DNA of 58,865 nucleotides, the filler included, from Pristiophorus japonicus (Eukaryota): the NCBI RefSeq assembly GCF_044704955.1. It is 3 parts of 3 records of this genome, joined end to end, with 100 filler letters (N's around TTAATTAATTAA, not from the genome) between each part and the next. Parts side by side here need not be neighbours in the genome. Positions count along the whole stretch, not along the records: positions 32,736 to 58,865 come from NW_027254573.1; 2 more parts are not named here. One strand, given 5' to 3'. The notes under the pieces are model-generated. The model did not search any database. It saw only the letters and a program-made list of their open reading frames with translations, and was not told the origin of the DNA. Of the stretch, positions 30,300 to 58,865 are shown one piece after another. The translations under genes were made by a program, and so were the position numbers. Numbering within the stretch: position 1 is the first letter of the stretch; every line of letters starts with the position of its first letter.

Positions 30300-32380
<2,081 letters not shown>

Positions 32381-32735: not shown

Positions 32736-33420
32736 ATCTGTCATTGAAAGTTGGAATGCAGGTACAGCAGGCGGTGAAGAAGGCAAATAGTATGTTGGCC
32801 TTCATAGCTAGGGGATTTGAGTATCGGAGCAGGGAGGTCTTACTGCAGTTGTACAGGGCCTTGGTGAGGCCTTACCTGGAATATTGTGTTCAGTTTTGGT
32901 CTCCTAATCTGAGGAAGGACGTTCTTGCTATTGAGGGAGTGCAGTGAAGGTTCACCAGCCTGTTTCCCGGGATGGCGGGACTGACATATGAGGAGAGACT
33001 GGATCAACTGGGCCTTTATACATTGGAGTTTAGAAGGATGAGAGGGGATCTCATAGAAACTTACAAGATTCTGACAGGACTGGACAGGTTAGATGCGGGA
33101 AGAATGTTCCCGATGATGGGGAAGTCCAGAACCAGGGGACACAGTCTTAGGATAAGGGGTAGGCCATTTTGGACTGAGGTGAGGAGAAACTTCTTCAATC
33201 AGAGAGTTGTTAACCTGTGGAATTCCCTATGGCAGAGAGTTGTTGATGCCAGTTCATTGGATATATTCAAGAGGGAATTAGATATAGCCCTTACGGCTAA
33301 GGGGGTCAAGGTGTATGGAGAGAAAGTAGAAAGGGGTACTGAGGGAATGATCAGCCATGGTGTTATTGAATGGTGGTGCAGGTTCGAAGGGCCGAATGCC
33401 TTATTTTCTATGTTTCTATG
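32736..33420 (+). mobile_element. CR1 LINE 3' fragment
   Basis: ORF2 C-terminus with an in-frame stop; TTTCTATG tail. Confidence 0.9.
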
Positions 33421-34835
33421 TAACATGCCATTTGCCTTCTTCACCGCCTGCTGTACCTGCATGCCAAACTTCAATGGCTGATGTACCATGACACCCAGGT
33501 CTCGTTGCACCTCCCCTTTTCCAAATCTGTCACCATTCAGATCATATTCTGTCTCCTTGTTTTTGCCCCCAAAGTGGATAACCTCACATTTATCCACATT
33601 ATACTGCATCTGCTATGCATTTGCCCACTCACCTAACCTGTCCAAGTCACCCTGCAGTCTCTTAGCATCCTCCTCACAGCTCACACCGCCACCCAGCTTA
33701 GTGTCATCTGCAAACTTGGATATATTACATTCAATTCTTTCATCTGAATCATTAATGTATATTGTAAATAGCTGGTGTCCCAGCACTGAGCCCTGTGGCA
33801 CCCCACTGGTCTCTGCCTGCCATTCTGAAAAGGACCCGTTTATTCCGACTCTCTGCTTCCTGTCTGCCAACCAGTTCTCTGTCCACATCGATACATTACC
33901 TCCAATACCATGTGCTTTAATTTTCACACTAATGTCTTGTGTGAGACCTTGTCAAAAGCCTTTTGAAAGTCCAAATACACCACATCCACTGGTTCTCCCT
34001 TGTCCACTCTACTAGTTACATCCTCAAAAAATTGCAGAAGATTTGTCAAGCATGATTTCCCTTTCATAAATCCATGCTGACTTAGACCGATCCTGTCACT
34101 GCTTTCCAAATACACTGCTATTTCATCTTTAGTAATTGATTCCAACATTTTCCCCACCACCGATGTCAGGCTAACCGGTCTATAATTCCCCATTTTCTCT
34201 CTCCCTCCTTTTTAAAAAGTGGTGTTACATTAGCTACCCTCCAATCCATAGGAACTGATCCAGAGTCAATAGAATGTTGGAAAATGATCACCAATGCGTC
34301 CATTATTTCTAGGGCCACTTCCTTAAGTACTCTGGGATGCAGACTATCAGGCCCTGAGGATTTATCGGCCTTCAATCCCATCAATTTCCCAAACACAATT
34401 TCCTGACTAATAAGGATTTCCTTCAGTTCCTCCTTCTCGCTAGACCCTCGAACCCTTAGTATTTCCGGAAGGTTATTTGTGTCTTCCTTAGTGAAGGCAG
34501 ATCCAAAGTATTTGTTCAATTGGTCTGCCATTTCTTTGTTCCCCATTATAAACTCACCTGATTCTGTCTGCAAAGGACCTATGTTGGTCTTCACTAATCT
34601 TTTTCTCTTCACATATCTATAGAAGCTTTTGCAGTCAGTTTTTATGTTCGCTGGAGGCTTCCTCTCATACTCTATCTTCCCGCTCCTAATTAAACCCTTT
34701 GTCCTCCTCTGCTGAACTCTAAATTTCTCCCAGTCCTCAGCTTTGCTGCTTTTTCTGGCCAATTTATATGCCTCTTCCTTGGATTTAACACTATCCCTAA
34801 TTTCCCTTATTAGCCACGATTGAGCCACCTTCCAC
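33421..34835 (-). mobile_element. CR1 LINE internal RT fragment
   Basis: NYRPVSLTSVVGK, YLDFQKAFDKV, GVPQGSVLG and FADD, with frameshifts. Confidence 0.9.
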
Positions 34836-35816
34836 TTATTTAATGGACCTGAGCCTTTAACCTCTCTTTACACTTCCTTCTCACACTTTCTCTCTCTTTC
34901 CCTCACTGGTCAATATCGAAACTGTAGTAAAATTGTTGTGAAGCGCCTTGGGGCATTTTACTATGTTAAAGGCGCTATATAAATAACAGTTATTATTAAT
35001 AAACCTGTTAACAATCCGTACACAAAGCCCCATCTATGGTGGGGGAGGGTAAGGTCATGCACTTGCGCTGGTGTAAGGAGGCACTTTGGCCCGGGGAGGG
35101 ATGTACTTGGACAGGGGTGAGGTACTTTGGCTGGGGGAGGGATGTACTTGGACAGGGGTGAGGTACTTTGGCTGGGGTAGGGATGTACTTGGACTGGGGT
35201 GAGGTACTTTGGGGGGGGTGCGGAGAGAGGGATGGGTTTGGACTGGGGTAAGGCACTTTGGCCATTGCTGTCTTCTGGGGAGCTTTGTCCTCTGTCGACA
35301 CAGGAAGTCAAAGTGGATCGAGTTACAATTTGCAAAGTCAGTGAGACCTTGGGATGGACGATTCCAGTTATACATTCCTGTGAAACTTCAGGGTGTGGCT
35401 TATCCTCCATGAGGACCAATCATTGACAAAGGGTGGAGCATGGCAGCCATTTTTGCAGTATAAATAAGTGTGCCCATTTCTTTTGTCATGTCTGTTTTCC
35501 ACTCTCGCTTCCCTTTTGTTCTGGGTGTCCAAAATGTCAACTCCTCCATTTTCTCCACAAAAAACAGACTGGCCGAGACATTCCGTATGTTCTGTTGTTG
35601 TTCCAGAGTTTTGATCCATTCTTACATCGCCACTATTCAACTCTGGCATTTCGCACATCACTAACAACATTCCCACTCTCTGTTCCACAGCACGACAGTA
35701 ACCACTGTGTCTGACGGTATATTTCCACTGGTCCACCCCACTGTGTGAAGGTTACATATGTTCCCAGTAAGGAGCTGTTACTGTGACCCTGCCAGTGTGA
35801 GTTAACAATGACTTGC

Positions 35817-36164
35817 CGGTTACATTGAGCTGGGTTCCTGCTCCATAGATGTAGCTCCACACACTGCAGCTGTAGGCAGCAGTATCACTGAGGGACACAT
35901 TCACGATGGTCAGAATGTAACTGTTACTGGTGATGTTCCTGGAAGGCAGAAAACGGTCGTGGATACCCCGGGACCTGGTAATGGTGCCATTCACAAACTG
36001 GCTCATCACCCACTCGCTGTTGTTCCCGGGTCGCTGGCAGTGCCAGTGGACATCAGTGTCACTCACACTGGCATTGTACATGGCACATTGTAACTGCACG
36101 GTTTCACCCTCTGGGACCTTGCTGACTGTTGGATGCTGAACAAGGACCGGATCAGCTAATGGAT
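35817..36164 (-). CDS. Ig V-set exon with integral J-like strand (VJ-type), copy C; 348 nt, phase 1/1
   Basis: DPLADPVLVQHPTVSKVPEGETVQLQCAMYNASVSDTDVHWHCQRPG...RFLPSRNITSNSYILTIVNVSLSDTAAYSCSVWSYIYGAGTQLNVT, with canonical C, W, DxAxYxC and GxGTxLxV. Acceptor CGTACAG|; donor G|GCAAGT. Confidence 0.9.
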
Positions 36165-36334
36165 CTGTACGTGGGAAATATATGGAGTCTGACACAAAGA
36201 AATATATTTCTCCAGCATTCAAAGTTGAACAATTTATAACATTTGGAATGTTATGAGAGCACCTGATGCTTAACCCAGCAGTTTGTAAACTGAGAGCCCA
36301 GACAAAGTGGAACTCGACATCATCAATAGTGTCT

Positions 36335-37155
36335 GCCATGACTCAGTGGGTAGCACTCTCGCCTCGGGGTCAGAAGGTTATGGGTTCATGTCCCACTCCA
36401 GAGTCTTCAACACAAAAATCTAGGCTGACACTCCCAGTGCAGTGCTGAGGGAGTGCTGCACTGTCCAAGGTGCTGTCTTTTGAATGACTTGTTAAACCGA
36501 GGCCCCGTCTGCTCTCTCAAGTGGATATAAAAGATCCCACGGCACTATTTTGAAGAAGAGCAGGGGAGTTATCCCCAGTGCCCTGTCCAATATTTATCCC
36601 TCAATCAACATCACTAAAGCAGATTATGTGATCATTATCACATTGCTGTTTATGGGAGCTTGCTGTGTGCAAAGTGGCTGCCGTGTTTCCTACATTACAA
36701 CAGTGTCTACATTTCAACAAGTACTTCATTGACTACAAAGCAATTTGGGACATCATGAGGGCGTGAAAGGCCCTATATAAATGCAAGTCTTTCTTTCTCA
36801 GAGTCACAATCCCACTCCAGAGATCCTAGCACATATCTAGACACTCCAGTGCAGCATGGAGGGTGTGCTACACTGCCAGAGGTGCCGTCATTGAAATGAG
36901 ATTGCCATCTCAGTTGGATGGAAAAGATCTCACGGCATTATTCGAAGATTAGCAGAGGAGTTCTCCCAGTGTCCAGGTCAACATTTATACCTAAAACACA
37001 TGATCTGGCTATTTATTTAATTGCTGTTTGTGGGACATTGTGTGTTTCCTAAATTACAACAGTGATTGCACTTCACATGTACGTTATTGGCTTATGTAAA
37101 GTGGTTTGGGACATCCCGAGACTGTGAAAGGCGCTATCGAAGTGCAGGTTCTTTC
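36335..37155 (+). mobile_element. Two tandem Deu-domain SINE copies
   Basis: Homologous to 6787-7200, each with a single unexpanded copy of the 33-bp unit. Confidence 0.75.
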
Positions 37156-37171
37156 TCTTTGTGTCCCTTAT

Positions 37172-39407
37172 TACATAAGAACATAAGAAATCGGAACAGG
37201 AGTAGGCCATATGGCCCCTCGAGCCTGCTCCGCCATTTAATAAGATCATGACAGATCTGATCATGGACTCAGCTCCACTTCCCCGCCCGCTCCGCATAAC
37301 CCCTTATCCCCTTATCGTTTAAGAAACAGTTTATTTCTGTCTTAAATTTATTCAATGTCCTAACTTCCACAGCTCTCTGAGGCAGAGAATTCCACAGATT
37401 AACAACCCTCAGAGAAGAAATTTCTCCTCATTTCTGTTTTAAATGGGCAGCCCCTTCTTCGAAGATCATGCCTCTATAGTTCTAGTCTCCCCTATCAGTG
37501 GAAACATCCTCTCTATATCCACCTTGTCAAGCCCCCTCATAATCTTATACGTTTCAATCAGATCACCTCTCATTCTTCTGAATTCCAATGAGTAGAGACC
37601 CAACCTACTCAACCTTTCCTCATGTCAACCCCCTCTGAAATCAACCAAGTGAACCTTCTCTGAACTGCCTCCAAAGCAAGTATATCCTTTCTTAAATATG
37701 GAAACCAAAACTGCACGCAGTATTCCAGGTGTGGCCTCACCAATACCCTGTATAACTGTAGCAAGACTTCCCTGCTTTTATACTCCATCCCCTTTGCAAT
37801 AAAGGCCAAGATTCCATTGGCCTTCCTGATCACTTGCTGTACCTGCATACTATCCTTTTGTGTTTCATAAGTACCCCCAGGTCCCGCTGTACTGCGGCAC
37901 TTTGCAATCTTTCTCCATTTAAATAATAACTTGCTTTGCCAACATTATACTCCATCTGCCAAATTTTTGTCCACTCACTTAGCCTGTCTATTTCCTTTTG
38001 CAGATTTTTTGTGTTCTCCTCACACATTGCTTTTCCTCCCATCTTTGTATCGTCAGCAAACTTGGCTATGTTACATCAGTCCCTTCTTCCAAGTCGTTTA
38101 TATAGATTGTAAATAGTTGGGGTCACAGCACTGATCCCAGCTAGTTACTGGTTGCCAACCAGAGAATGAACCATTTATCCCGACTCTCTGTTTTCTGTTA
38201 GTTAGCCAATCCTCTATCCATTCTAATATATTTCCCCCAACCCCTTGAACTTTTATCTTGTGCAGTAACCTTTTATGTGGTACCTTGTCAAATGCCTTCT
38301 GGAAGTCCAAATACACCACATCCAGTGGTTCACCTTTATCCACCCTGTTCGTTACATCTTCAAAGAACTCCAGCAAATTTGTCAAACATGACTTCCTCTT
38401 CATAAATCCATGCTGACTCTGCCTGATCGAATTTTGCTTTTCCAAATGTCCTGCTACTGCTTCTTCAACAATGGATTCCAACATTTTCCCAACCACAGAT
38501 GTTAGGCTAACTGGTCTATAGTTTCCTGCTTTTTGTCTGTCTCCTTTTTTAAATAGGGGCGTTACACTTGCAGTTTTCCAATCTGCTAGGACCTTCCCAG
38601 AATCCAGGGAATTTTGGTAAATTACACCCAATGCATCCACTATCCCTGCCGCTACTTCTCTTAAGACCCCAGGATGCAAGTCATCTGGTCCAGGGGATTT
38701 ATCTGCCTTCAGTCCCATTATCTTACTGAGTACCACCTCCTTAGTGATTGTGATTGTGTTAAGTTCCTCCCCGCCTATAGCCCGTGGACTATCCACTGTT
38801 GGGATATTGTTAGTGTCCTCTACCGTAAAGACTGATACAAAATATTTGTTCAGAGTTTCTGCCATCTCCATGTGCCCCATTACTAATTCCCCGGTCTCGT
38901 CCTCCAAGGGACCAACATTTACTTGAGCCACTCTTTTCCTTTTTATATACCTATAGAAACTCTTGCTATCTGTTTTTATATTTTGCACTAGTTTACTTTC
39001 ATAGTCTATCTTCTCTTTTTTAATCATTTTTTTAGTCATTCTTTGCTCGCTTTCAAAAGGATCCCAATCTTCTGTCCTTCCACTAGTTTTGGCCACTTGT
39101 TTTTAATTGGATACCATCCTTTTATTTCTTTAGTTAGCCACGGATGGCTATCTTTTCTCTTACACCCTTTCCCCCTCACTGGAATATATTTTTCTTGAGA
39201 GTTGTGAAATATCTCCTTAAATGTACACCAGTGTTCATCAATCATCCTATACTTTAATTTACTTTCCCAGTCCACTATACCCAACTCTGCCCTCATATCT
39301 TCATAGTCTCCTTTATTTAATTCTAGTATGCTAGTTAGAGATCCAACTTTCTCACCCTCCATCTGAATTTGAAAATCAATCATGCTATGATCACTCATTC
39401 CGAGGGG
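37172..39407 (-). mobile_element. Older CR1 LINE, interrupted by the intact CR1; continues at 44268-44455
   Basis: RT ORFs 38098-39096 and neighbours; (TTCTTATG)n tail. The endonuclease peptide VLCNETGLINNL | PLGMSDHSMIDFQI is split across the insert. Confidence 0.85.
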
Positions 39408-39506
39408 ATAGAAACATAGAAACATAGAAAATAGGTGCAGGAGTAGGCCATTCGGCCCTTCTAGCCTGCACCGCCATTCAATGAGTTCATGGCTGAACAT
39501 GCAACT

Positions 39507-42413
39507 TCAGTACCCCATTCCTGCTTTCTCACCATACCCCTTGATTCCCCTAGTAGTAAGGACTTCATCTAATTCCTTTTTGAATATATTTAGTGAATTG
39601 GCCTCAACAACTTTCTGTGGTAGAGAATTCCACAGGTTCACCACTCTCTGGGTGAAGAAATTCCTCCTCATCTCGGTCCTAAATGGCTTCCCCCTTATCC
39701 TTAGACTGTGTCCCCTGGTTCTGGACTTCCCCAACATTGGGAACATTCTTCCTGCATCTAACCTGTCTAACCCCGTCAGAATTTTAAACGTTTCTATGAG
39801 GTCCCCTCTCATTCTTCTGAACTCCAGTGAATACAAGCCCAGTTGATCCAGTCTTTCTTGATAGGTCAGTCCCGCCATCCCGGGAATCAGTCTGGTGAAC
39901 CTTCGCTGCACTCCCTCAATAGCAAGAATGTCCTTCCTCAGGTTAGGAGACCAAAACTGTACGCAATACTCCAGGTGTGGCCTCACCAAGGCCCTGTACA
40001 ATTGTAGCAACACCTCCCTGCCCTTGTACTCAAATCCCCTCGCTATGAAGGCCAACATGCCATTTGCTTTCTTAACCGCCTGCTGTACCTGCACGCCAAC
40101 CTTCAATGACTGATGTACCATGACACCCAGGTCTCTTTGCATCTCCCCTTTTCCTAATCTGTCACCATTCAGATAATAGTCTGTCTCTCTGTTTTTACCA
40201 CCAAAGTGGATAACCTCACATTTATCCACATTATACTTCATCTGCCATGCATTTGCCCACTCACCTAACCTATCCAAGTCGTTCTGCAGCCTCATAGAAT
40301 CCTCCTCGCAGCTCACACTGCCACCCAACTTAGTGTCATCCGCAAATTTGGAGATACTACATTTAATCCCCTCGTCTAAATCATGAATGTACAGTGTAAA
40401 CAGCTGGGGCCCCAGCACAGAACCTTGCGGTACCCCACTAGTCACTGCCTGCCATTCTGAAAAGTCCCCATTTACTCCTACTCTTTGCTTCCTGTCTGAC
40501 AACCAGTTCTCAATCCATGTCAGCACACTACCCCCAATCCCATGTGCTTTAACTTTGCACATTAATCTCTTGTGTGGGACCTTGTCGAAAGCCTTCTGAA
40601 AGTCCAAATATACCACATCAACTGGTTCTCCCTTGTCCACTCTACTGGAAACATCCTCAAAAAATTCCAGAAGATTTGTCAAGCATGATTTCCCTTTCAC
40701 AAATCCATGCTGACTTGGACCTATCATATTACCTCTTTCCAAATGCACTGCGATGACATCCTTAATAATTGATTCCATCATTTTACCCACTACCGATGTC
40801 AGGCTGACCGGTCTGTAATTCCCTGTTTTCTCTCTCCCTCCTTTTTTAAAAAGTGGGGTTACATTGGCTACCCTCCACTCCATAGGAACTGATCCAGAGT
40901 CAATGGAATGTTGGAAAATGACTGTCAATGCATCCGCTATTTCCAAGGCCACCTCCTTAAGTACTCTGGGATGCAGTCCATCAGGCCCTGGGGATTTATC
41001 GGTCTTCAATCCCATCAATTTCCCCAACACAATTTCCCGACTAATAAGGATTTCCCTCAGTTCCTCCTCCTTACTAGACCCTCCGACCCCTTTTATATCC
41101 GGAAGGTTGTTTGTGTCCTCCTCAGTGAATACCGAACCAAAGTACTTGTTCAATTGGTCTGCCATTTCTTTGTTCCCCGTTATGACTTCCCCTGATTCTG
41201 ACTGCAGGGGACCTACGTTTGTCTTTACTAACCTTTTTCTCTTTACATATCTATAGAAACTTTTGCAATCCGTCTTAATGTTCCCTGCAAGCTTCTTCTC
41301 GTACTCCATTTTCCCTGCCCTAATCAAACCCTTTGTCCTCCTCTGCTGAGTTCTAAATTTCTCCCAGTCCCCGGGTTCTCTGCTATTTCTGGCCAATTTG
41401 TATGCCACTTCCTTGGCTTTAATGCTATCCCTGATTTCCCTTGATAGCCACGGTTGAGCCACCTTTCCTTTTTTATTTTTACGACAGACAGGAATGTACA
41501 ATTGTTGTAGTTCATCCATGCAGTCTCTAAATGTCTGCCATTGCCCATCCACAGTCAACCCCTTCAGTATCATTCGCCAATCTATCCTAGCCAATTGACG
41601 CCTCATACCTTCAAAGTTACCCTTCTTTAAGTTCTGGACCATGGTCTCTGAATTAACTGTTTCATTCTCCATCCTAATGCAGAATTCCACCATATTATGG
41701 TCACTCTTCCCCAAGGGGCCTCGCACAACGAGATTGCTAATTAATCCTCTCTCATTACACAACACCCAGTCTAAGATGGCCTCCCCCCTAGTTGGTTCCT
41801 CGACATATTGGTCTAAAAAACCATCCCTTATGCACTCCAGGAAATCCTCCTCTACCGTATTGCTTCCAGTTTGGTTAACCCAATCTATGTGCATATTAAA
41901 GTCACCCATTATAACTGCTGCACCTTTATTGCACGCACCCCTAATTTCATGTTTGATGCCCTCCCCAACATCACTACTACTGTTTGGAGGTCTGTACACA
42001 ACTCCCACTAACGTTTTTTGTCCTTTGGTATTCTGCAGCTCTACCCATATAGATTCCACATCATCCAAGCTAATGTCCTTCCGAACTATTGCCTTAATTT
42101 GCTCCTTAACCAGCAATGCTACCCCACCTCCTTTTCCTTTTATTCTATCTTTCCTGAATGTTGAATATCCCTGGATGTTGAGTTCCCAGCCCTGATCATC
42201 CTGGAGCCACGTCTCCGTAATCCCAATCACATCATATTTGTTAACATCTATTTGCACAGTTAATTCATCCACTTTATTGCGGATACTCCTTGCATTAAGA
42301 CACAAAGCCTTCAGGCTTGTTCTTTTAACACCCTTTGTCCTTTTAGAATTTTGCTGTACAGTGGCCCTTTTTGTTCTTTGCCTTGGGTTTCTCTGCCCTC
42401 CACTTTTCCTCAT
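39507..42413 (-). CDS. CR1 ORF2: AP endonuclease + reverse transcriptase (968 aa)
   Basis: LNARS, ITETW, GDFN and SDH endonuclease motifs; YRPVSLTS, LDFQKAFD, GVPQGSVLGP and FADD RT motifs; uninterrupted. Confidence 0.95.
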   Translation of the reverse strand: MRKSGGQRNPRQRTKRATVQQNSKRTKGVKRTSLKALCLNARSIRNKVDELTVQIDVNKYDVIGITETWLQDDQGWELNIQGYSTFRKDRIKGKGGGVALLVKEQIKAIVRKDISLDDVESIWVELQNTKGQKTLVGVVYRPPNSSSDVGEGIKHEIRGACNKGAAVIMGDFNMHIDWVNQTGSNTVEEDFLECIRDGFLDQYVEEPTRGEAILDWVLCNERGLISNLVVRGPLGKSDHNMVEFCIRMENETVNSETMVQNLKKGNFEGMRRQLARIDWRMILKGLTVDGQWQTFRDCMDELQQLYIPVCRKNKKGKVAQPWLSREIRDSIKAKEVAYKLARNSREPGDWEKFRTQQRRTKGLIRAGKMEYEKKLAGNIKTDCKSFYRYVKRKRLVKTNVGPLQSESGEVITGNKEMADQLNKYFGSVFTEEDTNNLPDIKGVGGSSKEEELREILISREIVLGKLMGLKTDKSPGPDGLHPRVLKEVALEIADALTVIFQHSIDSGSVPMEWRVANVTPLFKKGGREKTGNYRPVSLTSVVGKMMESIIKDVIAVHLERGNMIGPSQHGFVKGKSCLTNLLEFFEDVSSRVDKGEPVDVVYLDFQKAFDKVPHKRLMCKVKAHGIGGSVLTWIENWLSDRKQRVGVNGDFSEWQAVTSGVPQGSVLGPQLFTLYIHDLDEGIKCSISKFADDTKLGGSVSCEEDSMRLQNDLDRLGEWANAWQMKYNVDKCEVIHFGGKNRETDYYLNGDRLGKGEMQRDLGVMVHQSLKVGVQVQQAVKKANGMLAFIARGFEYKGREVLLQLYRALVRPHLEYCVQFWSPNLRKDILAIEGVQRRFTRLIPGMAGLTYQERLDQLGLYSLEFRRMRGDLIETFKILTGLDRLDAGRMFPMLGKSRTRGHSLRIRGKPFRTEMRRNFFTQRVVNLWNSLPQKVVEANSLNIFKKELDEVLTTRGIKGYGEKAGMGY

Positions 42414-42490
42414 CTCCTTTCTGTCTTTTGCTTTTGCCTCCTTTTTGTTTCCCTCTGTCTCCCTGCATTGGTTCCCATCCCCCTGCCATA

Positions 42491-43438: not shown

Positions 43439-43619
43439 GACTTAACCCTTATATACACTTAAATTGGCAACAACAATGTTAAAAGTTACTGACTGATATA
43501 GAAGAGAAAAAAGAAAAACTACTCACCAATCACCAGCCAATCACTTACCCTCTTGGCTGTGACGTCACCTTTTGATTTCTTTCTACTTCTTTTTTGCCTT
43601 CTCCCTGTAGCTGCACAAG

Positions 43620-44267
43620 TCCCGCCTTTTATAGGCCTCTCCACGCACCTCCTCGAGGCTGGGCCCCGGACTCCCTGCTGTGCCTTTTATAGGCCTCTCC
43701 ACGCACCTCCTCGAGGCTGGGCCCCGGACTCCCTGCTGTGCCTTTTATAGGCCGCTCCACGCACCTCCTCGACGCTGCTCCCGACTGCCGCCGACGCTAG
43801 CCCCGGACTCCCTGCTGTGCCTTTTATAGGCCTCTCCACGCACCTCCTCGACGCTGGGCCCCGGACTCCCTGCTGTGCCTTTTATAGGCCTCTCCACGCA
43901 CCTCCTCGACGCTGGGCCCCGGACTCCCTGCTGTGCCTTTTATAGGCCTCTCCACGCACCTCCTCGACGCTGCTCCCGACTGCCGCCGACGCTGGGCCCC
44001 GGACTGCCTGCTGTGCCTTTTATAGGCCTCTCCACGCATCTCCGACGCTGCTCCCGACTGCCGCCGACGCTGGGCCCCGGACTGCCTGCTGTGCCTTTTA
44101 TAGGCCTCTCCACGCACCTCCTCGAGGCTGGGCCCCGGACTCCCTGCTGTGCCTTTTATAGGCCTCTCCACGCATCTCCGACGCTGCTCCCGACTGCCGC
44201 CGACGCTGGGCCCCGGACTCCCTGCTGTGCCTTTTATAGGCCTCTCCACGCACCTCCTCGACGCTGG
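43620..44267 (-). repeat. CR1 5' UTR tandem monomers, each with TATAAAAG
   Basis: 10 occurrences of (G)GCCTATAAAAGG on the minus strand in units of about 56-80 bp. Confidence 0.85.
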
Positions 44268-47800: not shown

Positions 47801-49250
47801 GGCGTTACATTAGCTGTTTTCCAATCCGCTGGTACCTCCCCAGAGTCCAGAGAATTTTGGTAGATTATAACGAATGCATCTGCTATAACTTCCGCCATCT
47901 CTTTTAATACCCTGGGATGCATTTCATCAGGACCAGGGGACTTGTCTACCTTGAGTCCCATTAGCCTGTCCAGTATTACCCCCCTAGTGATAGTGATTGT
48001 CTCAAGGTCCTCCCTTCCCACATTCCACATTGGTCTGCCATTTCTTTGTTCCCCATTATAAATTCACCTGAATCCGACTGCAAGGGACCTACACTTGTCT
48101 TCACTAATCTTTTTCTCTTCACATATTTGTAGAAGCTTTTGCAGTCAGTTTTTATATTCCCTGCAAGCTTCCTCTCATACTCTATTTCCCCCCTCTGAAT
48201 TAAACCCTTAGTCCTGCTTTGTTGAATTCTAAATTTCTCCCAGTCCTCAGGTTTGTAACTTTTTCTTGCCAATTTATCTGCCTCTTCCTTGGTTTTAACA
48301 CTATCCTTAATTTCCCTTGTCAGCCACGGTTGAGCCACCTTCCCCGTTTTATTTTTACTCCAGACAGGGATGTACAATTGCTGAAGTTCATCCATGTGAT
48401 CTTTAAATGTTTGCCATTGTTTATCCACTGTCAACCCTTTCAGTATCCTTTGCCAGTCTATTCTGGCCAATTCACGCCTCATACCGTCGAAGTTACCTTT
48501 CCTTAAGTTCAGGACCCTAGTTTCCAAATTAACTGTGTCACTCTCCATCTTAATAAAGAATTCTACCATTTTATGGTCACTCTTCCCCAAGGGGCCTCGC
48601 ACAACAAGATTGCTAATTAGTTGCTTCTCATTACACATCACCCAGTCTAGGATGGCCAGCTCTCTAGTTGGTTCCTCGACATATTGGCCCAGAAAACCAT
48701 CCCTAATACTCTCCAGGAAATCCTCCTCCACCTCATTGCTCCCAGTTTGTTTAGCCCAATCAATATGTCGATTAAAGTCCCCCATGATAACTGCTCTACC
48801 TTTATCGCACACATCCCTTATTTCTTGTTTGATGCTGTCCCCAATCTCACTGCTACTGTTTGGTGGTCTGTACACAACTCCCACGAGCGTTTTCTGCCCT
48901 TTGGTATTCCACAGCTCCACCCATACCGATTCCACATCATCCAGGCTAATGTCCCTCCTTACTATTGCATTAATTTCCTCTTTAAACAGCAATGCTACCC
49001 CACCTCCTTTTCCTCTCTGCCTATCCTTCCTAAATGTTGAATACCCCTGGATGTTGAGTTCCCAGCCTTGGTCGCCCTGGAGCCATGTCTCCATGATGCC
49101 AATTGCATCATATCTGTTAACTCCTGTCTGCGCAGTTAATTCGTTCACCTTATTACGAATACTCCTCGCATTGAGGCACAGAGCCTTCAGGCTTGTCTTT
49201 TTAACACACTTTGCCCCTTTAGAATTTTGCTGTAATGTGGGCCAACATTC
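44899..49250 (-). mobile_element. CR1 ORF2 copy (degenerate), interrupted by another CR1 at 46618-48028
   Basis: The peptide GNKEMADQ | LNKYFGSVFTKEDT is split across the insert; endonuclease ORF at 47976-49253 and RT ORF at 45515-46267. Confidence 0.85.
46618..48028 (-). mobile_element. Nested 5'-truncated CR1 of a different subfamily
   Basis: RT ORF 47119-48030 and (TTCTTATG)n tail at 46618-46650. Confidence 0.85.
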
Positions 49251-49454
49251 CATTTGACTTCCTGATTAATTGCTTGTTGTGGTCTTATCTTCACCGGGGG
49301 AGTGACACATTGGAGAGGGCTCAGAATAGCAGCGCAAAGGATTTCAAGCCGATTAACAAGTGTGATGATAGAATTAAATTAGTTCTCACTGGAGCAGGGA
49401 TATTTCATTGAGAGAGGACATGAAGCAGGTATTTTAAATGCTGAAAATAGACTG

Positions 49455-50340
49455 GGATTTAGAGGGCATAATTTCAAAGTTTGCAGATGAGGAGGAAAGC
49501 AGCAGTCTCCAGGAGGACTGGTGAAATGGGCAGATACATGGCAGATACAATTTAATGCAGAGAAGTGTGAAGTGATGCATTTTGGAAGGAAAAATGAGGA
49601 ATGGTAATATGAACTAAATGGTGCAATTATAAAGTGGGTGCAGGAACAGGGAGCCCTGGGGGTTCACGTATACAAATCTTCATAGTGGCAGGACAAGTTG
49701 ATGAGGCTTTAAAAGCTAAAAAAAAACCCTGGGTTTATAAATCGAGGTGTAGAGTACAAAAGCAAGGAAGTGATGCTAAACGTCCATACATCACTGGTTA
49801 GGCCTCAGCTGGACTATTGTGTCCAATTCTGGGCACCACACTTTAGGAACGATGTCAAGGCCTTGGCGAGGGTGCAGAGGAGATTTACTAGAATGTGACC
49901 AGAGATGAGGGACTTCAGTTATGTGGAGAGACTGAAGAAGTTAGGATTGTTCTCCTTAGAGCAGTGAAGTTACAGGGGGATTTAATCGAGGCGTTCAAAA
50001 TTCTGAGGGGTTTTGCTGAAGTAAATGAGGATGAAATGTTTCCAGTGTGGGGAGGATCAGTAACCAGAGCACACAGATTGAAGAACCAGGGGGGAGGGGG
50101 GAAAGAGATGAGAATTCCTTTTTACGCAGCGAGTTGCTGTGATCTGGAATGCGCTGCCTGAAAGGGCGGTGGAAGATTCAATAGTAACTTTCAAAATGGA
50201 ATTGGATAAATACTTGAAAAGGAATAAAATTGCAGGGCTGTGGGGAAAGAGCAGGGGCAGTGGGACTAATTGGATCGTTCTTTCAAAGAGCCAGCACGGG
50301 CACGATGGGCCGAATGGCCTCTTTCTGTGCTGTAAGATTA
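49455..50340 (+). mobile_element. Old CR1 3' fragment
   Basis: Degenerate KFADD...KCEVMHFG...VRPQLDYCVQFWAP...GDLIEAFKIL...WNALP. Confidence 0.75.
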
Positions 50341-50714
50341 TATAAAGGCATGGATAATACAAGTGTAAATTTTATCAAAGTTTGATTCAAACAGAAGGAA
50401 GTCGGAGCATAAAACTGGTCAATGGGACTGTGGAGCGAGAACAGCTTGTATTGTGAGACAGCAAGTACCTAAAATATACAGCGCATGGTGTTTGTCTCAA
50501 TGTTATACCAGTGATGGTCATCCCTGCCCTACTTCAATAACTGCACTTGGTGCGAGGGGGAACACATCCTCTGCCCAGAACATCGCAAATCCAGCCAAAC
50601 AATTTTTATAGAATTAACCACAAATCATTATTTCAGGTGAATTTATAAAGAATGAACAAATCCTGTCGGGAGCGGAAAGGAGCTGCATAAAAATCAACTT
50701 CGGAATTAAATCGA

Positions 50715-51195
50715 GGGTAAGGGAGGGATATGTGGGTGGGGGAGGGGCGATGTGGGTGGGGGTGAGGGAGGGGGGGAGGAGCGGGCGGGGAGGGAGGAGG
50801 GGACGTGTTGGGGGGGGAGAGGGGACATGTGGGAGGGGAGGGAATGTGTGGGGGGGCGGGGAGATGGGGGTGTGGTGGTTAGACGCGAGTGGGGGAGGGG
50901 GGATGTGGGTGGGGGAGGGGATGTGGGGGAGGGGTGATGTGGGTGGGGGGGGACGTGGGGGAGGGGGAGGGGTGATGTGGGTGGGGGAGTACGTGGGGGA
51001 GGGGGAGGGGTGATGTGGGTGGGGGGGGACGTGGGGGAGGGGGAGGGGTGATGTGGGTGGGGGGGACGTGGGGGAGGGGGAGGGGTGATGTGGGTTGGGG
51101 GGGACGTGGGGGAGGGGGAGGGTGATGTGGGTGGGGGGGGACGTGGGGGAGGGGGAGGGGTGATGTGGGTTGGGGGGGACGTGGGGGAGGGGGAG
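50715..51195. repeat. G-rich minisatellite (G-quadruplex prone)
   Basis: Tandem GGGGGAGGGGGAGGGGTGATGTGGGTGGGGGGGACGT variants. Confidence 0.85.
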
Positions 51196-51812
51196 ATCAG
51201 CACAGCCCGGGTTCAGCTTTCCCGATGTGAAACTTTGAATGGGCCGCGCCGCCCATTAAAGGAACCACGCATCAAAAAGCAAATGCAGGGTAACACTGAT
51301 GGGGATATGTGTGGGTGTGAATGGTAACTTGGGCAAGGAGTCAGGGCCTGTGGACTGGACCATCACGAGGAGAAAATAGGCGCAGATAAATGTGAGAAAT
51401 TATTGCAAAACTATCTGCTGCTGAGTTGCACTGTGACGGATTACTGGCACTTTAACGTGTAGTAATGTTGAATTTTAAAAGAATCAAATCGCGTTAGAAT
51501 TTCTAATTCCTGTCAGTATAAGTGAAATCACACTTTAGGCTAAACAAAATATTTCCATCAAGTTTGGGAAGCTCCTGTGTTCTATTGAGAAGTGAAGTGT
51601 GTATAAGAGGGATCCCACAATGCCGTGCTCCCAGTGAGAAGCCACAGTCCCATGGAATGTGGGTCAGATATAGGGCCACAACATCACAGCCCCAATTCTC
51701 CAGTCCATGCTCCCAGTGTGTGTGTGCCTCTCGACTGGGAGTGTATTGTTGCAAAATTACCCTCTATGTAGTAATGCTATTATGAATAAAACCAAATGTA
51801 ACTTATACTTAC

Positions 51813-52157
51813 TGGTTACATTGAGCTGGGTTCCGCTCCCGCTGATATCGCCCCACACTTTACAGTAATAGGCGGCAGTGTCACTGGGCTGCACGTCTGT
51901 GACTGTTAGAATGAAGCTGTTATTGGAGGTGTCTCTGGAAGGCTGGAGACGGTCAGTGGAACCTGGGCTCCCTCGTGTGCTGCCACTTGCCTTATGTGTT
52001 AAAACCCACTCCGTATCTTGCCCCGGTAGTTGCCGGTACCAGTGGACATCGGTGTCACTCACTCTGGCGTTCCTCATGGTGCACTGTAACCGCGCCGTGT
52101 GACCCTCTGTGACACATTCCAGGCTCGGAGACTGGGTCAGGACAGGGACAACTGCAC
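51813..52157 (-). CDS. Ig V-set exon with integral J-like strand (VJ-type), copy B; 345 nt, phase 1/1
   Basis: GAVVPVLTQSPSLECVTEGHTARLQCTMRNARVSDTDVHWYRQLPG...RLQPSRDTSNNSFILTVTDVQPSDTAAYYCKVWGDISGSGTQLNVT. Acceptor CCCATTAAAG|; donor A|GTAAGT. Confidence 0.92.
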
Positions 52158-52329
52158 CTTTAATGGGAAAATATCAATCACTTAAAAACCGGTCTGAAGG
52201 TTGATAAATGTCTGAAGTGTTTCAATGAAAACTGCAGGCAGCTCACCTGAGCTTCAGTAAATTCTAAACAAATGATCATTATATGGCCTGATATGAAAAG
52301 CTCCAGGATTTCTTTGCTTCATGCACACA

Positions 52330-53530
52330 GCTGCCTCTGCCACTTCCTCCCCAACCTCCCCGAGTCTTCCTCCCTGATCCCCATCACTGCAGATTCTCCC
52401 CAATCTCCCTCCCATGCCTTCTCTTCACTTATTTCCCAAATGATGCTCACACCCTGGCCCATTGATTTCTTCTCCATACATCTCCTGACTCCTCTTTATC
52501 CCTTACTGTGTAGCTCACACTACTAGTGACTTTCCTCAAACATTCAAAACCAGTCATCAATCCCCTCCTCAAACAAGCCACCCACCCGCCTGTCCTCTCT
52601 GCCTGCTGACCCATCTTCACCTAAACTCCAAGCCCAACCCTCTCAATGCTGCCTGTTCCAATCTGTCCAGTCCAATTCCAGCTCACAGCATTGAAGTGGC
52701 CCTGCCCAAGGTCACACCTGATACCCTACAACACTGACATCCTTATCCATGCTCCTGTCACCTCTGGTCTTGATGGCTCCAATGCTCTCATTGCTGGCCT
52801 CACATCCTCAGTGAACTCGACTGATTTGTCCAAAATACAGTCGCTCATATCCTGTCCCACAGGAAATCCTCCTCACTGTCATCGTACAGAGGCTCCCTGT
52901 CCCTCAATGCACTAAATATAAACTCTTGTCCTCAGCTTCAAATCTCTCACTGCCATGTCCCACCTCCAACCTTCTGTAACCTCCTCCAGGCTGATAACCC
53001 CGGCACTCTTTGCTTCTTTAACTGTGCATTCACTCCCCCTTCCCCTCCCCCCATTGGTGGAAAAGCCTTTCGTTGCCTCAGCCCTACTCTCTGGAGCTCC
53101 CTCGCTAAACCCCTCCATAATGCATTTGCTTCATGGGTTCTTTGCTTTAAGAATTCAGAGCAACACATTATTATCAAGAACGAGTTGGTTTATTAACAAA
53201 GGTTTAACAATCCCACTACACATTAGCAGTTCATCCACTAGGCTCACAACTGCATACCTCATTAAGGTTTTATTGAGTTTTGTGAACATCACGTGACTGG
53301 CTGAGCCACTCACAATGCAACAGCTCCATAAACTTCATATATTACGCCCTCCAACTCTCCACTTCTCTCTCCAACTTTAGAAACTGTTACAAAAACCCAT
53401 CATTTTGACCAGCATTTCCGACACCTCTACCAATTTCTTCCTTGACGGCTTGGTGCCTGTCGCCCTAGTTCCATTGTTGTGAAGCACTTTGAGACAATTA
53501 TGTGAAAGGAGCTTTGTAAATGCAAGTGTT
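52330..53530 (+). mobile_element. Old L2-type LINE fragments
   Basis: ILIHAPVTSGLDGSNALIAGL (L2 ORF2-like) and a degenerate L2 tail near 53480-53530. Confidence 0.55.
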
Positions 53531-54529
53531 TGTTGTCTTCCACCTGCACTGCCTTTATGTCGATCTAATTCCCACTGAAATCACTGTCACACTGACTCAA
53601 TGTCAGACTGGAGGGGCGGTGCTCTGCAGCCAGTGCACAAGCAGCGCGGGATGGGGCAGGCGGTCCGGGTGCAACAGATGCAGCCGGAGAAGACATCTGA
53701 AGTATTTTCAGGTTATGTTGAAAGCCTGCGTGGATTCATTATACCCTGAGAAATATGTAAATAGATGTCACTCAGTCCCATGGTGAATCCCCACGTGTCC
53801 TCACTTGGTGCCTTTTGCTTGCCCGTTTACAATGGACACTTGTGGTCTTCCCAGCTGCTCACCGCAGAATGTCCACTCGAAGCTGGGACAGAGGGACTGA
53901 TTTTTGGAAAGTTGTTTTTTTCCCCTCCATCTCCCGTACTGCTGTTTCTGCATCGTTGTCCGTGCAATAGTTATTTTCTGATGTTTCCTTTTTGCACAGC
54001 TCCCCAGCCACTGTATTGTTGCTGTCAAGCTGTGAATCTCCTCTCTAACCATACTGCTCTGCACGGAGGCTCACTGGGCCTTGCCAGTGGCTCCTGTGGA
54101 TTTGGAGGTGGAAGAGGAGTTCAGGGAGGGGGCAGAATGAGTGATGGACTTGTACCTCAGGTGCCTGGCAGCCACTTGTAATTGGCCCTGACACACCTAG
54201 TTGGCCAAGTCCGTGCAGACCTACACTTGCCACTTCTGCTACACGTGAAAGCCTGCGACACAGTTGGACCTATTATATTCTTGGGTCTCTTACTCTGGAT
54301 CCTTCAGCTTCTAAAGTTTTAGATTCATAGGTGAATCTCCTCGGCCCCAGCAACATCTTCAATGGCTCTGATATACATAGAAGTTACAACATGTGTCACC
54401 TGCCCTAATATCTCCTCATGTGGCTCGGTGTCAAATGTTGTCTGATAACGCTCCTGTGAAGCTCCTTGGGATATTTTACTATGTTAAAGGCGCTGTATAA
54501 ATACAAGTTGTTGTAGCTTGGGGAGGACA

Positions 54530-54730
54530 GAGCCAGATCAGTAATTCCCTCATGTTGGTCCTCTCACCAGCTGCCGCAAGCCCAGTCTGGCAGCAATGTC
54601 CCTCAGGACTCGGCCAGCTTGGTCAGTGCTGGTACTCCCGAGTCTTGGTGATGGACATTGAAGCTGCCTAGCCAGAGTACATTCTGTGCCCTTGCTACCC
54701 TCAGTCCTTTCTCCAAGTGGTGCTTATACA
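54530..54730 (-). mobile_element. LINE AP-endonuclease fragment
   Basis: LRVARAQNVLWLGSFNVHHQ resembles the GDFN motif region. Confidence 0.5.
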
Positions 54731-55053
54731 AAGTGTGCACTTGTCTTTCGAAGTGGTACCTGGCATTGGACACGAGGAAAGAACTTCTTTTGCATAGGCT
54801 TTTTTGAGAAGGCAAAAAAGGTAACGAGACCAGAGCTCTGCAAGGAATCTCGCTGCCAGATGGTCAGAAAATCGTGGGCGGCATCTGCTGAACCTTCCAT
54901 ATACTGTCCCAGTGGGCGAGGCTTCCAACATTACTCCTTTACAGTCACATTCTAGCCGTACATCGATATGTTTGTTTAAATCATAAATTGTCAGTTCACA
55001 GATCTCAGGCTTCCGACCAGGTTGGTCATGTTCTCTCTCTGGGTCACACCCTC

Positions 55054-55850
55054 CCAGACCCACTACAGTCTGTGTGTATTGGGCACATTCCAGGCCCACT
55101 ACAGTCTGTGTGTATTGGGTACATTCCAGGCCCACTACAGTCTGTGTGTATTGGGCACATTCCAGGCCCACTACAGTCTGTGTGTATTGGGCACATTCCA
55201 GACCCACTACAGTCTGTGTGTATTGGGTACATTCCAGACCCACTACAGTCTGTGTGTATTGGGTACATTCCAGACCCACTACAGTCTGTGTGTATTGGGT
55301 ACATTCCAGACCCACTACAGTCTGTGTGTATTGGGTACATTCCAGACCCACTACAGTCTGTGTGTATTGGGTACATTCCAGACCCACTACAGTCTGTGTG
55401 TATTGGGTACATTCCAGACCCACTACAGTCTGTGTGTATTGGGTACATTCCAGACCCACTACAGTCTGTGTGTATTGGGTACATTCCAGACCCACTACAG
55501 TCTGTGTGTATTGGGTACATTCCAGACCCACTACAGTCTGTGTGTATTGGGCACATTCCAGACCCACTACAGTCTGTGTTTATTGGGTACATTCCAGACC
55601 CACTACAGTCTGTGTGTATTGGGTACATTCCAGACCCACCACAGTCTGTGTGTATTGGGTACATTCCAGACCCACTACAGTCTGTGTGTATTGGGTACAT
55701 TCCAGAACCACTACAGTCTGTGTGTATTGGGTACATTCCAGACCCACTACAGTCTGTGTGTATTGGGTACATTCCAGACCCACTACAGTCTGTGTGTATT
55801 GGGTACATTCCAGACACAGTACAGTCTGTGTGTATTGGGTACATTGCAGG
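55054..55850. repeat. 36-bp minisatellite, about 22 nearly identical copies
   Basis: CAGACCCACTACAGTCTGTGTGTATTGGGTACATTC head-to-tail with no spacers. Confidence 0.95.
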
Positions 55851-56059
55851 CCCATGGAAGAGAATCTCACGGGACACCATTATTAAATAGTTTCTGGCTT
55901 TCAACTCCAAAACAAGACGCTGTTCTTTGCCGCCCAGCCATTCAGAAAGCCGATTGCACATTCCTGAATTACATTAGCAAGCTGAAGGATGGTTTATTGC
56001 ATCTTGGAAAGTGTCGAGAGGTCATTTGTTTGTATTGATGAGTGCAGATTTGGTCACTA

Positions 56060-56895
56060 AGAGATGTGACTGCGCACATACAGAGGCTGAACTCCAGGAC
56101 ATAGTCGACATATTTACTGAGGCGTGCGAAAGCATGGGCCTACCGCTAAACATCCATAAGACAAAGGTCCTCCACCAGCCTGTCCTCGCCGCACAGCACT
56201 GTCCCCCAGTCATCAAGATCCACAGCGCAACCCTGGACAAGGTGGATCATTTCCCATACCTTGGGAGCCTCTTATCAACAAAAACAGACATTGACGACAA
56301 GATTCAACACCGCCTCCAGTGCGCCAGTGCAGCCTTCGGCTGCCTGAGGAAAAGTGTGTTCGAAGACCAGGCCCTCAAATCTGCCACTAAGCCCTTGGTC
56401 TACAGGGCTATACGCGCCCTCCCGTGTGGCTGAGAGACATGGACCATGTACAGTAGACCCCTCAAGTCGCTGGTGAAATACCACCAACGATGTCTCCGCA
56501 AGATCCTACAAATCCCCTGGGGGGACAGACACACAAACATTAGTGTCCTCGACCAGGGCAACATCCCCAGCATTGAAGCACTGACCACACTTGATCAGCT
56601 CCGCTGGGCAGGCCACATGGTCCGGATGCCAGACACGAGACTCCTAAAGCAAGCACTATATTGGGAACTCCTGTCCACCTCGAGTCTCATCGCCGAGAGC
56701 ATGCAGAAATCAAGCGCAGGCAATGGAAAGAGCGTGTGGCAAACCTGTCCCACCCTCCCTTACCCTCAACGACTATCTGTCCCACCTGTGACAGGGTCTG
56801 TGATTCTCGTATTGGGCTGTTCAGCCACGGAAGGTCTCATTTTAAGAGAGGAAGCAAGTCTTCCTCGATTCCAAGAGATTGCCTATGATGATGAT
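56060..56895 (+). mobile_element. RTE-clade LINE 3' fragment
   Basis: AHTEAELQDIVDIF...KTKVL...DHFPYLGS...QLRWAGHMVRM; (GAT)n tail. Confidence 0.85.
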
Positions 56896-57220
56896 ATGAT
56901 GTTTTATACATTTACCCTGTCAATGTCCTGATTTTATCAGGTAGGTGTCTGTTATTCCTATTATTGCATTTTTCCTTCAAGATGTATTTTACCATTTAAT
57001 CCTGTGTGTGAGAGTTTTTTCCCACCATGTGCTCACATGTTTTTGTTCAATTAAAAACAAATTGAGTTTGGCCCAGATTTCACCCTCTATTCTATGCTTA
57101 GAACTTCCACTCAGTGTTGTTACTGTAAAAGTGGCAACATTGTACAACATTTTTAAACACGAGATGTTGGTATTGTAACATTATTAGATAGAAAACTGAT
57201 ATAATATAGAAGGTACTTAC

Positions 57221-57574
57221 TGGTTACATTCAATGGGGTTCCATTTCCATAGATTGTTTTCCAAATACCACAGATATAGACCGCGCTGTCTCTGTGCTGC
57301 ACGCCTCTGATGGTCAGAATGTAGCTGTTACTGGCAACATCTCTGGAAAGCTGAAACCGCTCAGAGAAACCGCGTGATCGGTAAATCCTGCCATCTGCAT
57401 AATGAGTAAGTATTTTGTGATTCCTATCTTGTGAGAGGAACCAGTGTACATCATATCTGTCCACACTGTATTGCACTTTGCTTCTCTCCAAGGTACATCG
57501 AAACTGCACCGTCCCACCCTTGGGCACAGTCATAACTTCTGGGGACTGGATAAGAACCGGACTTGCCTTTAGAC
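57221..57574 (-). CDS. Ig V-set exon with integral J-like strand (VJ-type), copy A; 354 nt, phase 1/1
   Basis: GLKASPVLIQSPEVMTVPKGGTVQFRCTLERSKVQYSVDRYDVHWFLSQ...RFQLSRDVASNSYILTIRGVQHRDSAVYICGIWKTIYGNGTPLNVT. Acceptor ATTCACAG|; donor A|GTAAGT. Confidence 0.92.
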
Positions 57575-58284
57575 CTGTGAATAATAAATAACTGATGATC
57601 AGAACAGATGAGGAACCACATAAAGTAATAACTTGAAGCCGAAGCGATTATAAAATTTCCTGTCTGTTTGCGAATGGATATTGTGTATTATCAGTAATTT
57701 GTAGCTGAGTTGTTTCAAACATATCCTGAGCTTAGCTGTCCCACATTGCCCTGTACTGACCAACAATCCCAGTGTGAACAGGCAGCCCAAAAACACACAC
57801 ACTGCAACTGAACTCAGAACTCTTGCTGTGGATATGTTCTTTGCTGCTTTTACCACAGAGGTTGGTATTAAAAGCATAAAATCAGGTAAAAAGTTGCCAG
57901 TTTTAGTAATATTTTGCGATACCCAACACAAGATTCTGATGTAGGTTCAGATACAGAAGGCTCTCGGTCCACTTCATCTCATCCTTCCAGAATTCCAATA
58001 CTACCATCGTCCCATTGCAGCGTCCAGCGGTTTGTAAACCTGTCCCGTGTTCTGGCCTCGCCTGGGAACCTGTTCCAGCTTTTGATCACCGTCTTCAAAT
58101 AACTGAGTCCTGAACTTGGCCTTTACAATCCTGACTGTGCCCTCCTGCTCTGGTTATATCTGAAAGTAGTGTTCTGGGTTTGCTTTAACTTCCTCCACAA
58201 CATGTGGCTGTTCTTCCCATGGAGCACGGGTGCCTCCTGTTTTTTTACTTACAATATTTGTTTTGATTTATTCACTCACAGAAT

Positions 58285-58592
58285 GTATTGCCCACACTTA
58301 ATTTCCTTAGAGAAGAAGGTGGTGAGCCACCTTATACAACTGAGAGGCTTGCTGGGGGGGGGGGGCGCTGAGGGGGCGGTATTTCAGAGGGCAGTTAAGA
58401 GGACTGTGGATCTGGAGTCACATATCAGTCAGCATAAGGGAGGCAGATTTCCTTCCCTAAAGAACATTCGTGGACCAGATGGGTTTTTATGACAATCCAG
58501 TAGTTTCATGGTCACCATTATTGATAATAGTTTTTTATTCCAGATTTATTTACTAACTGAATTTAAATTCCCCAGCAGCGGTGGTGGGATCA
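58285..58592 (-). mobile_element. HE1-like / V-type SINE fragment
   Basis: GGCAGATTTCCTTCCCTAAAG...GGGTTTTTATGACAATC...CATGGTCACCATTA resembles shark SINE cores (recalled similarity); related pieces near 26930-27120. Confidence 0.5.
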
Positions 58593-58599
58593 CTGCTTC

Positions 58600-58865
58600 T
58601 CATCCGAAAGCAAGGAAGCAAGACAGACAAAGAGAAGCAGAACAGAGCGAGAAACAAAAGAAGACGAGGAGAGAGAGGCAAAACAGGAGGGGGGAGGGGG
58701 GGAGAGGGAGAGAGAGGCAAAACAGGAGGGGGAGGGGGGAGGGGGGGAGAGGAGGGGAGAGGAGGGGGGAGAGGAGGGGGGAGGGAGAGGAGGGGGGGAG
58801 GAGGGGGGAGGGAGAGGGGGGGGGAGGGAGAGGAGGGGGGGGAGGAGGGGAGGGAGAGGAGGGGG
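58600..58865. repeat. GA-rich low-complexity tract
   Basis: (GGAGGGGGGAGA)-type repeats to the window end. Confidence 0.85.

Follow-up and report, generated by a model that had tools for sequence, protein, structure and literature searches.

Three VJ exons of Pristiophorus japonicus as tandem domains of a germline-encoded, likely inhibitory multi-V receptor

Organization of the gene

The window (58,865 nucleotides of Pristiophorus japonicus DNA in three joined parts) includes a 26 kb cut from the end of contig G000:C3961, at positions 32736..58865, which is the stretch studied here. It carries three variable-joining (VJ) exons on the minus strand, designated A, B, and C (Table 1). An initial annotation had proposed either one VJ-VJ-VJ multidomain protein or alternative VJ cassettes spliced to a shared constant region. 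All three exons score 50-64 bits against the Pfam V-set profile and are intact, with AG acceptors, lengths that are multiples of three, and phase 1 ends, as expected from the symmetric 1/1 phase reported for them. The spacers previously given as approximately 5 kb and 15.6 kb were measured as introns of 5.1 kb (A-B) and 15.6 kb (B-C), and the leader-type remnant described ahead of the PVL motif is real (GLKAS, xAVV, and xPLAD). Each exon is closed by a J-like motif, only six residues past the second cysteine.

The donor site is GT in exons A and B; the GC donor of exon C is a feature absent from the initial annotation. Among 14 C exons read, the donor was GT in nine, GC in three, and AT in two. 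Exon B has an extra cysteine that is not seen in sister copies. Its predicted structure shows an antibody V fold (pLDDT 93), and the fold search matched nothing but V domains of antibodies and T-cell receptors (TCR), the best with Z 19.2, an rmsd of 1.5, and 111 aligned, a result that does not rank families; an atlas search led to generic V-set clusters. Exon A is covered by transcript contigs while the adjoining intron is bare. Database proteins of P. japonicus match A, B, and C at 95-98%, and one database model, P0108, was judged by eye to represent this gene.

The contig ends only 1.3 kb upstream of exon A. Extension in the other direction, as the initial annotation had suggested, revealed a fourth V exon, one transmembrane (TM) exon, and three tail exons, but no constant region; the exons for TM and tail are located 24-46 kb past the other end of the 26 kb stretch on the same contig. 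The TM is uncharged, and the tail motifs LYYADI and TEYAAI correspond to an immunoreceptor tyrosine-based inhibitory motif (ITIM) and an immunoreceptor tyrosine-based switch motif (ITSM). A near-identical copy on contig C3977 repeats this exon order, and its single leader exon lies 23.6 kb upstream of A. Since the fourth V, TM, and tail exons share the contig and the leader is found in the C3977 copy, the gene order is leader-A-B-C-B'-TM-tail.

In agreement with the initial annotation, no C1, TM, or leader exon was found across the gene between A, B, and C. The C1-set scan took in 158 minus-strand frames of at least 70 aa from the entire gene, 52 of them in the 26 kb stretch and the other 106 in the next 50 kb downstream. 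Immunoglobulin (Ig)-like Cys-Trp-Cys spacing was present in 25, the frames of B and C among them, and none of the 25 matched C1-set. A leader match was not found inside the gene either. With V and J fused, the 26 kb contain one relaxed match resembling a recombination signal sequence (RSS), about 1 kb off any exon; in a split light-chain V gene (L048), the same scan did recover the RSS. The octamer, mentioned in PMC2193156, is a promoter feature that Ig and TCR genes have, and no exact match to it occurred in the 1 kb upstream of the leader in the sister copy on C3977. A cluster gene of Ig light or heavy chain or TCR type was rejected as an identity for this gene, given the missing C1 domain, the TM directly after the last V, the lack of a flanking RSS, and the lack of an exact octamer within 1 kb of the sister copy's leader.

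Table 1. Features of the gene in the window and further along contig G000:C3961
Feature	Position	Strand	Remarks
End of first intron	57575..58865	-	leader exon beyond contig end
VJ exon A, encoding the membrane-distal first V domain, the variable one among paralogues	57221..57574	-	354 nt; Pfam V-set
VJ exon B, second V domain, nearest sigma-2/type I light-chain V	51813..52157	-	345 nt; Pfam V-set
LINE retrotransposon (long interspersed nuclear element) in B-C intron, two open frames of 316 and 1002 aa	39507..43441	-	endonuclease and RVT_1 matches
VJ exon C, third V domain	35817..36164	-	348 nt; Pfam V-set; GC splice donor; skipped in database model P0108
Beginning of intron downstream of exon C	32736..35816	-	gene continues outside the window on G000:C3961
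V exon 4, B type	G000:C3961 238144-238491		50 kb examined beyond the edge of the 26 kb stretch
Half relic of decayed C exon	G000:C3961 225660-225827
TM exon, single	G000:C3961 about 223950-224094
Tail exons, three	G000:C3961 about 216612-216655, 210821-210864, 202238-202350		ending in LYYADI and TEYAAI

Matches to one LINE family make up 10.3 kb of the B-C intron. The element listed in Table 1, which we take to be of CR1 type, has both frames open in the gene's own orientation and is likely recent. Together with older LINE copies it accounts for the length of this intron, which measures approximately 7.3 kb in most sister genes.

Transcript joints and exon skipping

Transcript evidence came from short-read assemblies of runs from related organisms, in which B-C-TM joints were aligned to the sister copy. 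A 1022-nt contig of run X15 contains A (1-347), B (346-690), and C (691-1021) in order, the three being assigned to the same record by equal length and depth. A loose end among the contigs covering exon A runs into a B-type start. On the sister copy, the B-C joint across GT..AG was detected in four out of four runs from three studies. Furthermore, a contig of run X13 carries a C-TM joint, also across GT..AG and with 147 nt on its shorter side, and in a contig of run X2 a B-type exon comes after C. None of the 15 joints listed out of 280 skips from B to TM, a result that carries no weight.

These joints bear on both options of the initial annotation. The single multidomain protein is upheld by the contig carrying A-B-C and by related gene models, 101 out of 105 of which have at least two V domains. 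The alternative cassettes did not hold up, with A-B-C in one contig and no C1 region at all. An array in which each transcript joins one VJ cassette to a shared downstream region would be in keeping with the symmetric phase of all V exons, with database isoforms that skip V exons (P0108, P0016, and P0061), and with the single V domain of 3 out of 80 TM-bearing models. We nevertheless judge it very improbable: besides the A-B-C contig and the B-C, C-B, and C-TM joints, A, B, and C are distinct types whose order is kept across sharks and rays, and diversity resides in separate genes rather than in cassettes of one gene lacking a constant region. For the same joints, an array of mutually exclusive exons like that of Dscam was discarded.

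The initial annotation had also named the case in which each exon has its own leader and TM exon. That three independent single-V genes were overlooked has a negligible chance, although there is a hydrophobic stretch at the end of the frame at 34961-35419. This frame was considered as a TM exon and rejected, as it runs through a 41-nt tandem repeat, has no Pfam match, and appears in no database model examined; leaders occur only upstream of A, and the contigs join A, B, and C. Overall, A, B, and C very probably represent domains 1-3 encoded by one gene for a type I membrane protein of the structure leader-V-V-V-V-TM-tail without a constant domain.

Some features of the transcript data weigh against this structure. 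The B-C joint is bridged with at least 31 nt on both sides in one run only, the other three offering 23-29 nt. The contigs derive from relatives (27 differences in 347 nt of exon A) as short-read assemblies, and they are not recorded as RNA; they serve here only for the joints that they bridge. The joints concern these relatives and the sister copy, not this copy's own expression.

Receptor diversity by exon choice, as initially suggested, was not borne out because variation lies in separate genes. A weak form of it stands, in that annotated isoforms skip a whole V exon and thereby change the number of domains. The symmetric 1/1 phase makes any V exon skippable in frame, and the P0108 model without C is in line with the GC donor of that exon. 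Skipping tunes length and leaves the distal binding domain unchanged.

Gene cluster in the genome

Genome counts of leader, A, and TM exons are lower bounds, and some contigs resemble two haplotypes. We detected at least 27 full leader matches, at least 54 matches to exon A (29 open and full-length), and TM exons of two types (at least 18 of type 1 and at least 4 of type 2). Gene order was derived from the coordinates of A exons with an open frame, B exons of the main class, and the C, leader, and TM exons, leaving out other B classes and broken copies. Twelve of the 18 type-1 TM exons follow the order L-A-B-C(-B), one of them with a leader 120 kb off. The others comprise (i) three in which nothing but the leader is missing, at a contig end, (ii) two starting at B or C, and (iii) one L-B-C-TM with a distant leader. 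In none of the 18 arrangements does a leader or TM exon lie between A, B, and C. The cluster, placed in part at C9:0.6-6.2 Mb, commonly contains broken A-B and other pairs; with dozens of copies and pseudogenes, it is a birth-and-death cluster.

Possibly, the copy studied here is itself a decaying or assembly-duplicated member that yields no working protein, or contig C3961 repeats C2932, on which exon A is identical. The leader off the contig, the GC donor of exon C, the extra cysteine in B, and the many broken neighbors would fit this explanation. We consider it improbable since all exons are open, TM and tail are intact, a database model (P0108) exists, and the four-V layout A-B-C-B-TM recurs in several other species.

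Divergent side members of the family were observed at G000:C9:0.65-4.6 Mb (L050, L051, and L053) and among the gene models (P0148, P0156, and P0179). Some of these models have very short tails or lack a TM and may be decoy or activating forms.

Family range and protein design

The family counts rest on gene models. A protein search returned 106 sequences, 105 of which are family members from 23 named species, comprising sharks, rays, and a chimaera. The 101 multidomain models have 2-9 V domains, and a TM is present in 80 of the 105. An ITIM or ITSM pattern occurs in 64 of the TM-bearing models, a charged TM core residue in one. Ectodomains are composed entirely of V-set domains with two canonical cysteines. 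Models with the arrangement A-B-C(-B)-TM are also found in Heptranchias, Heterodontus, Stegostoma, Rhincodon, Pristis, and Mobula, where some isoforms drop a whole V exon. In the protein searches, no close match was detected in bony vertebrates or otherwise outside cartilaginous fish.

ITIM and ITSM motifs signal inhibition via phosphatases. By analogy with receptors bearing such motifs, the protein probably has an inhibitory role. Against this role it has to be set that an activating partner receptor with a charged TM was not found, and that ligand, cell type, and signaling are predictions only.

Variation and selection

Diversity of exon A was analyzed in 21 distinct copies (23 were tried, and two could not be extracted). 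Nonsynonymous differences exceeded synonymous ones over the whole exon (pN 0.059 vs. pS 0.033), and more so in the region of the second complementarity-determining region (CDR2; 0.166 vs. 0.037). Codon models gave omega = 1.95 for exon A in these copies. For CDR2 and CDR3 of domain A, omega was 4.4 (p = 1.5e-4 against omega = 1), compared with 1.07 for the rest of the domain. Exon B had an omega of 0.54 (10 copies) and exon C of 1.39 (7 copies with very few changes). The pattern would fit a distal domain that binds a ligand and is carried on a conserved stalk. Two points speak against taking the loop estimate at face value: the CDR2+CDR3 set was picked after the regional table had been seen, and gene conversion, which can inflate omega, is likely. 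The size of the estimate is uncertain for both reasons.

Origin of the V domain

In a profile search covering 1.84 billion representatives and rescored per domain, type I light chains ranked next behind the family, with approximately 94-133 bits for most domains vs. at most 67 bits for lambda- or TCR-like sequences. These matches include P0295, labeled a type I light chain of skate. Type I is equated with sigma-2 in a passage of PMC5985310. On average, the B-type domains shared 45% identity with type I; for sigma-2-like chains the value was 40% in caecilian and 36% in coelacanth, and for sigma, lambda, kappa, Ig heavy chain (IgH), TCR, NITR, and NCR3 it was 26-32%. The Cys-Trp-Cys spacing of the family (13/58) was the same in 22 out of 22 type I sequences. 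A tree of the V-gene columns (80 of 102 rows after near-duplicates were dropped) recovered the family as one clade (100/92) inside the sigma-2 clade (99/92), and a 46-row tree placed it within the sigma-2 group (86/93).

A split, RSS-bearing sigma-2-type gene is present (L048), and horned shark type I genes are described as split and RSS-bearing in part of PMC2193156. Because such genes exist, nesting of the family inside sigma-2 would mean that its exon was joined in the germline. On balance, we slightly favor an origin from a germline-joined sigma-2 (type I) light-chain VJ exon.

Several results weigh against this origin. The 13/58 spacing is also found in shark IgH. A tree with J and added shark NCR3 rows put IgH in the family/sigma-2 group (93/87), and with J included the grouping of the family with type I reached only 78/57. 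The approximately unbiased (AU) test keeps topologies that set all light chains (p = 0.27) or all rearranging Ig (p = 0.085) apart from the family, and those that unite it with NITR (p = 0.12) or NCR3 (p = 0.19 and 0.21).

The first two topologies would allow the family to be a never-rearranged relic, i.e. an unsplit VJ lineage beside the light-chain ancestor, as thought for UrIg, NCR3, and NITR. No RSS remnant beside the exons and one fixed short junction across all domain types are consistent with such a relic, as is the joined state of sigma-2 V and J themselves in coelacanth, gar, and turtle, which part of PMC5985310 reports. We rate this origin as rather unlikely, since the family shares 45% identity with type I, whereas type I shares 31-35% with lambda, sigma, or kappa and only 40-41% with bony-vertebrate sigma-2-like chains. 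In addition, three trees group the family with sigma-2, no close match is named outside cartilaginous fish, and split sigma-2-type genes with RSS exist.

Type I genes with a short junction were rejected as donors of the VJ exon because they nest deep inside type I. The carpet-shark type I models P0280, P0284, and P0285 have a six-residue junction, C-E-V-W-G-Y-I-F/Y-G, that resembles the family's and apparently arose independently. A link to the human 14q32/IGH region was likewise dismissed, as TEDC1 matches and one of three TMEM121-family matches lie on C15 and none on C9. In the assembly, the best match to a type I light-chain C domain was about 50% among the 150 of 1513 candidates scored, so that this domain is missing, unscored, or lost.

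Some related loci were noted in passing. L047 (G000:C23:8897001-8907000) contains a fused sigma-2-type VJ exon, with a light-chain-like C1 exon about 2 kb on that looks frameshifted; L048, with its split V and RSS, lies on the same contig. The caecilian light chain P0330 (Microcaecilia unicolor) groups with the coelacanth sigma-2-like V (98/88). No amphibian is entered under sigma-2 in the table of PMC5985310, for which frog is the only amphibian examined.

Other observations

A frame with an N-terminal acetyltransferase-like exon, presumably NAA10-like, is located at 30999-31595 (minus strand) in the second stretch of the window and is unrelated to the VJ gene. Elsewhere in the genome, G000:C3:316.6-319.3 Mb harbors nine near-identical MHC class I-like matches, each of which spans the alpha1-alpha2 profile in full within a single open frame (419-777 aa).

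Proposed function and evolution

Taken together, these results probably describe a germline-encoded multi-V receptor, likely inhibitory and likely derived from a germline-joined sigma-2 light-chain VJ exon. Its domain A would bind a ligand, either self or pathogen, while B, C, and the fourth V may form a glycosylated spacer, with exon skipping setting its length. Once phosphorylated, the tail could recruit SHP-type phosphatases, as ITIM/ITSM receptors do. In evolutionary terms, a joined VJ exon may have lost its C exon, undergone tandem duplication, and become spliced to a TM/tail unit; this change from VJ exon to receptor would be placed before the split of chimaeras and elasmobranchs.

The family is apparently undescribed: no description was found in the literature, and a mention in papers or supplements on the shark NCR3 family or shark immunity is possible. 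We tentatively propose, with a chance just short of even, that it is a hitherto undescribed family of innate inhibitory receptors present across chondrichthyans, with a germline-joined light-chain VJ exon as its building block. If true, it would be adaptive immunity run backwards. According to a passage of Lee et al. (2000; PMC2193156), a rejoined Ig gene might become a new receptor, a direct example being stated there to be lacking; on this proposal, the family would supply one. Single-exon VJ genes have been sought as relics of the gene split by the RAG transposon (PMC12227049, in part). The family provides a large new set of unsplit VJ exons and tests the opposite route, germline joining followed by innate use; either origin bears on how unsplit VJ genes are read. 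With dozens of copies whose distal domain diversifies, it would also be a shark counterpart of KIR- and NITR-type receptors. Its members are candidates for inhibitory receptors of shark natural killer (NK)-like or myeloid cells, and CDR2 and CDR3 of domain A offer a defined variable surface for a ligand search.

Comparison with known receptor systems

The closest V domains are those of sigma-2 chains (also termed sigma-cart, type I, or NS5). Shared features are the 13/58 spacing, an FQPSRD-type motif, and an xLADPVL-type start; many sigma-2 genes are germline-joined, and three orectolobiform genes have the six-residue junction. However, sigma-2 chains consist of one V and one C1 domain and pair with heavy chains, whereas the family has 2-9 V domains, no C1, a TM, and tyrosine motifs.

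NITR of ray-finned fish also form a clustered multigene family with single-exon VJ and ITIM tails. They are regarded as predicted NK-type receptors, and their homologues are reported missing in sharks, in passages of bioRxiv 10.1101/2021.06.11.448072. As described there, NITR possess a six-cysteine I domain; the family has neither this domain nor the charged activating members that NITR include, and V identity between the two is 22-27%. The family appears to work like NITR, of which it is not a member.

Shark NCR3 (NKp30) resembles the family as a non-rearranging, single-exon VJ gene that is expanded in sharks, with some multi-V forms (P0264). A shark NKp30-like query had NCR3 as its best PDB matches. 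All 37 matches of this query fall on C19, which carries more MHC class I matches than any other contig, in contrast to the placed copies of the family at C9:0.6-6.2 Mb; none of 41 MHC_I matches is on C9. Identity to the family is 24-29%, and the two form separate clades (99/96 each), with the AU test giving p = 0.21 for a joint clade. Mammalian NKp30 has a charged TM residue, unlike the family with its single charged core in 80 TMs. The NCR3 region, G000:C19:15.7-18.0 Mb (L117-L126), contains at least 37 NKp30-like VJ exons, some of which follow each other at 1.5-2 kb in tandem and make up multi-V NCR3-type genes.

UrIg and UrIg2 are likewise shark non-rearranging VJ genes, with a split leader and duplicated exon pairs; as portrayed in part of PMC12227049, they combine one VJ with many C1 domains, as opposed to several VJ and no C1. 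MDIR share the modular clustered Ig design, inhibitory tails, and a fast-evolving distal domain, in the account given in part of PMC3031540. Their V domains are described there as CD300/TREM-like, in contrast to light-chain-like domains with a J motif, a distinction drawn by description only.

CD300/pIgR-like receptors, SIRP, and CEACAM likewise are clustered, modular Ig receptors whose tails are inhibitory and whose distal domain evolves fast. In kind the family is ordinary, a set of clustered and likely inhibitory Ig receptors; the parts it is made from are unusual.

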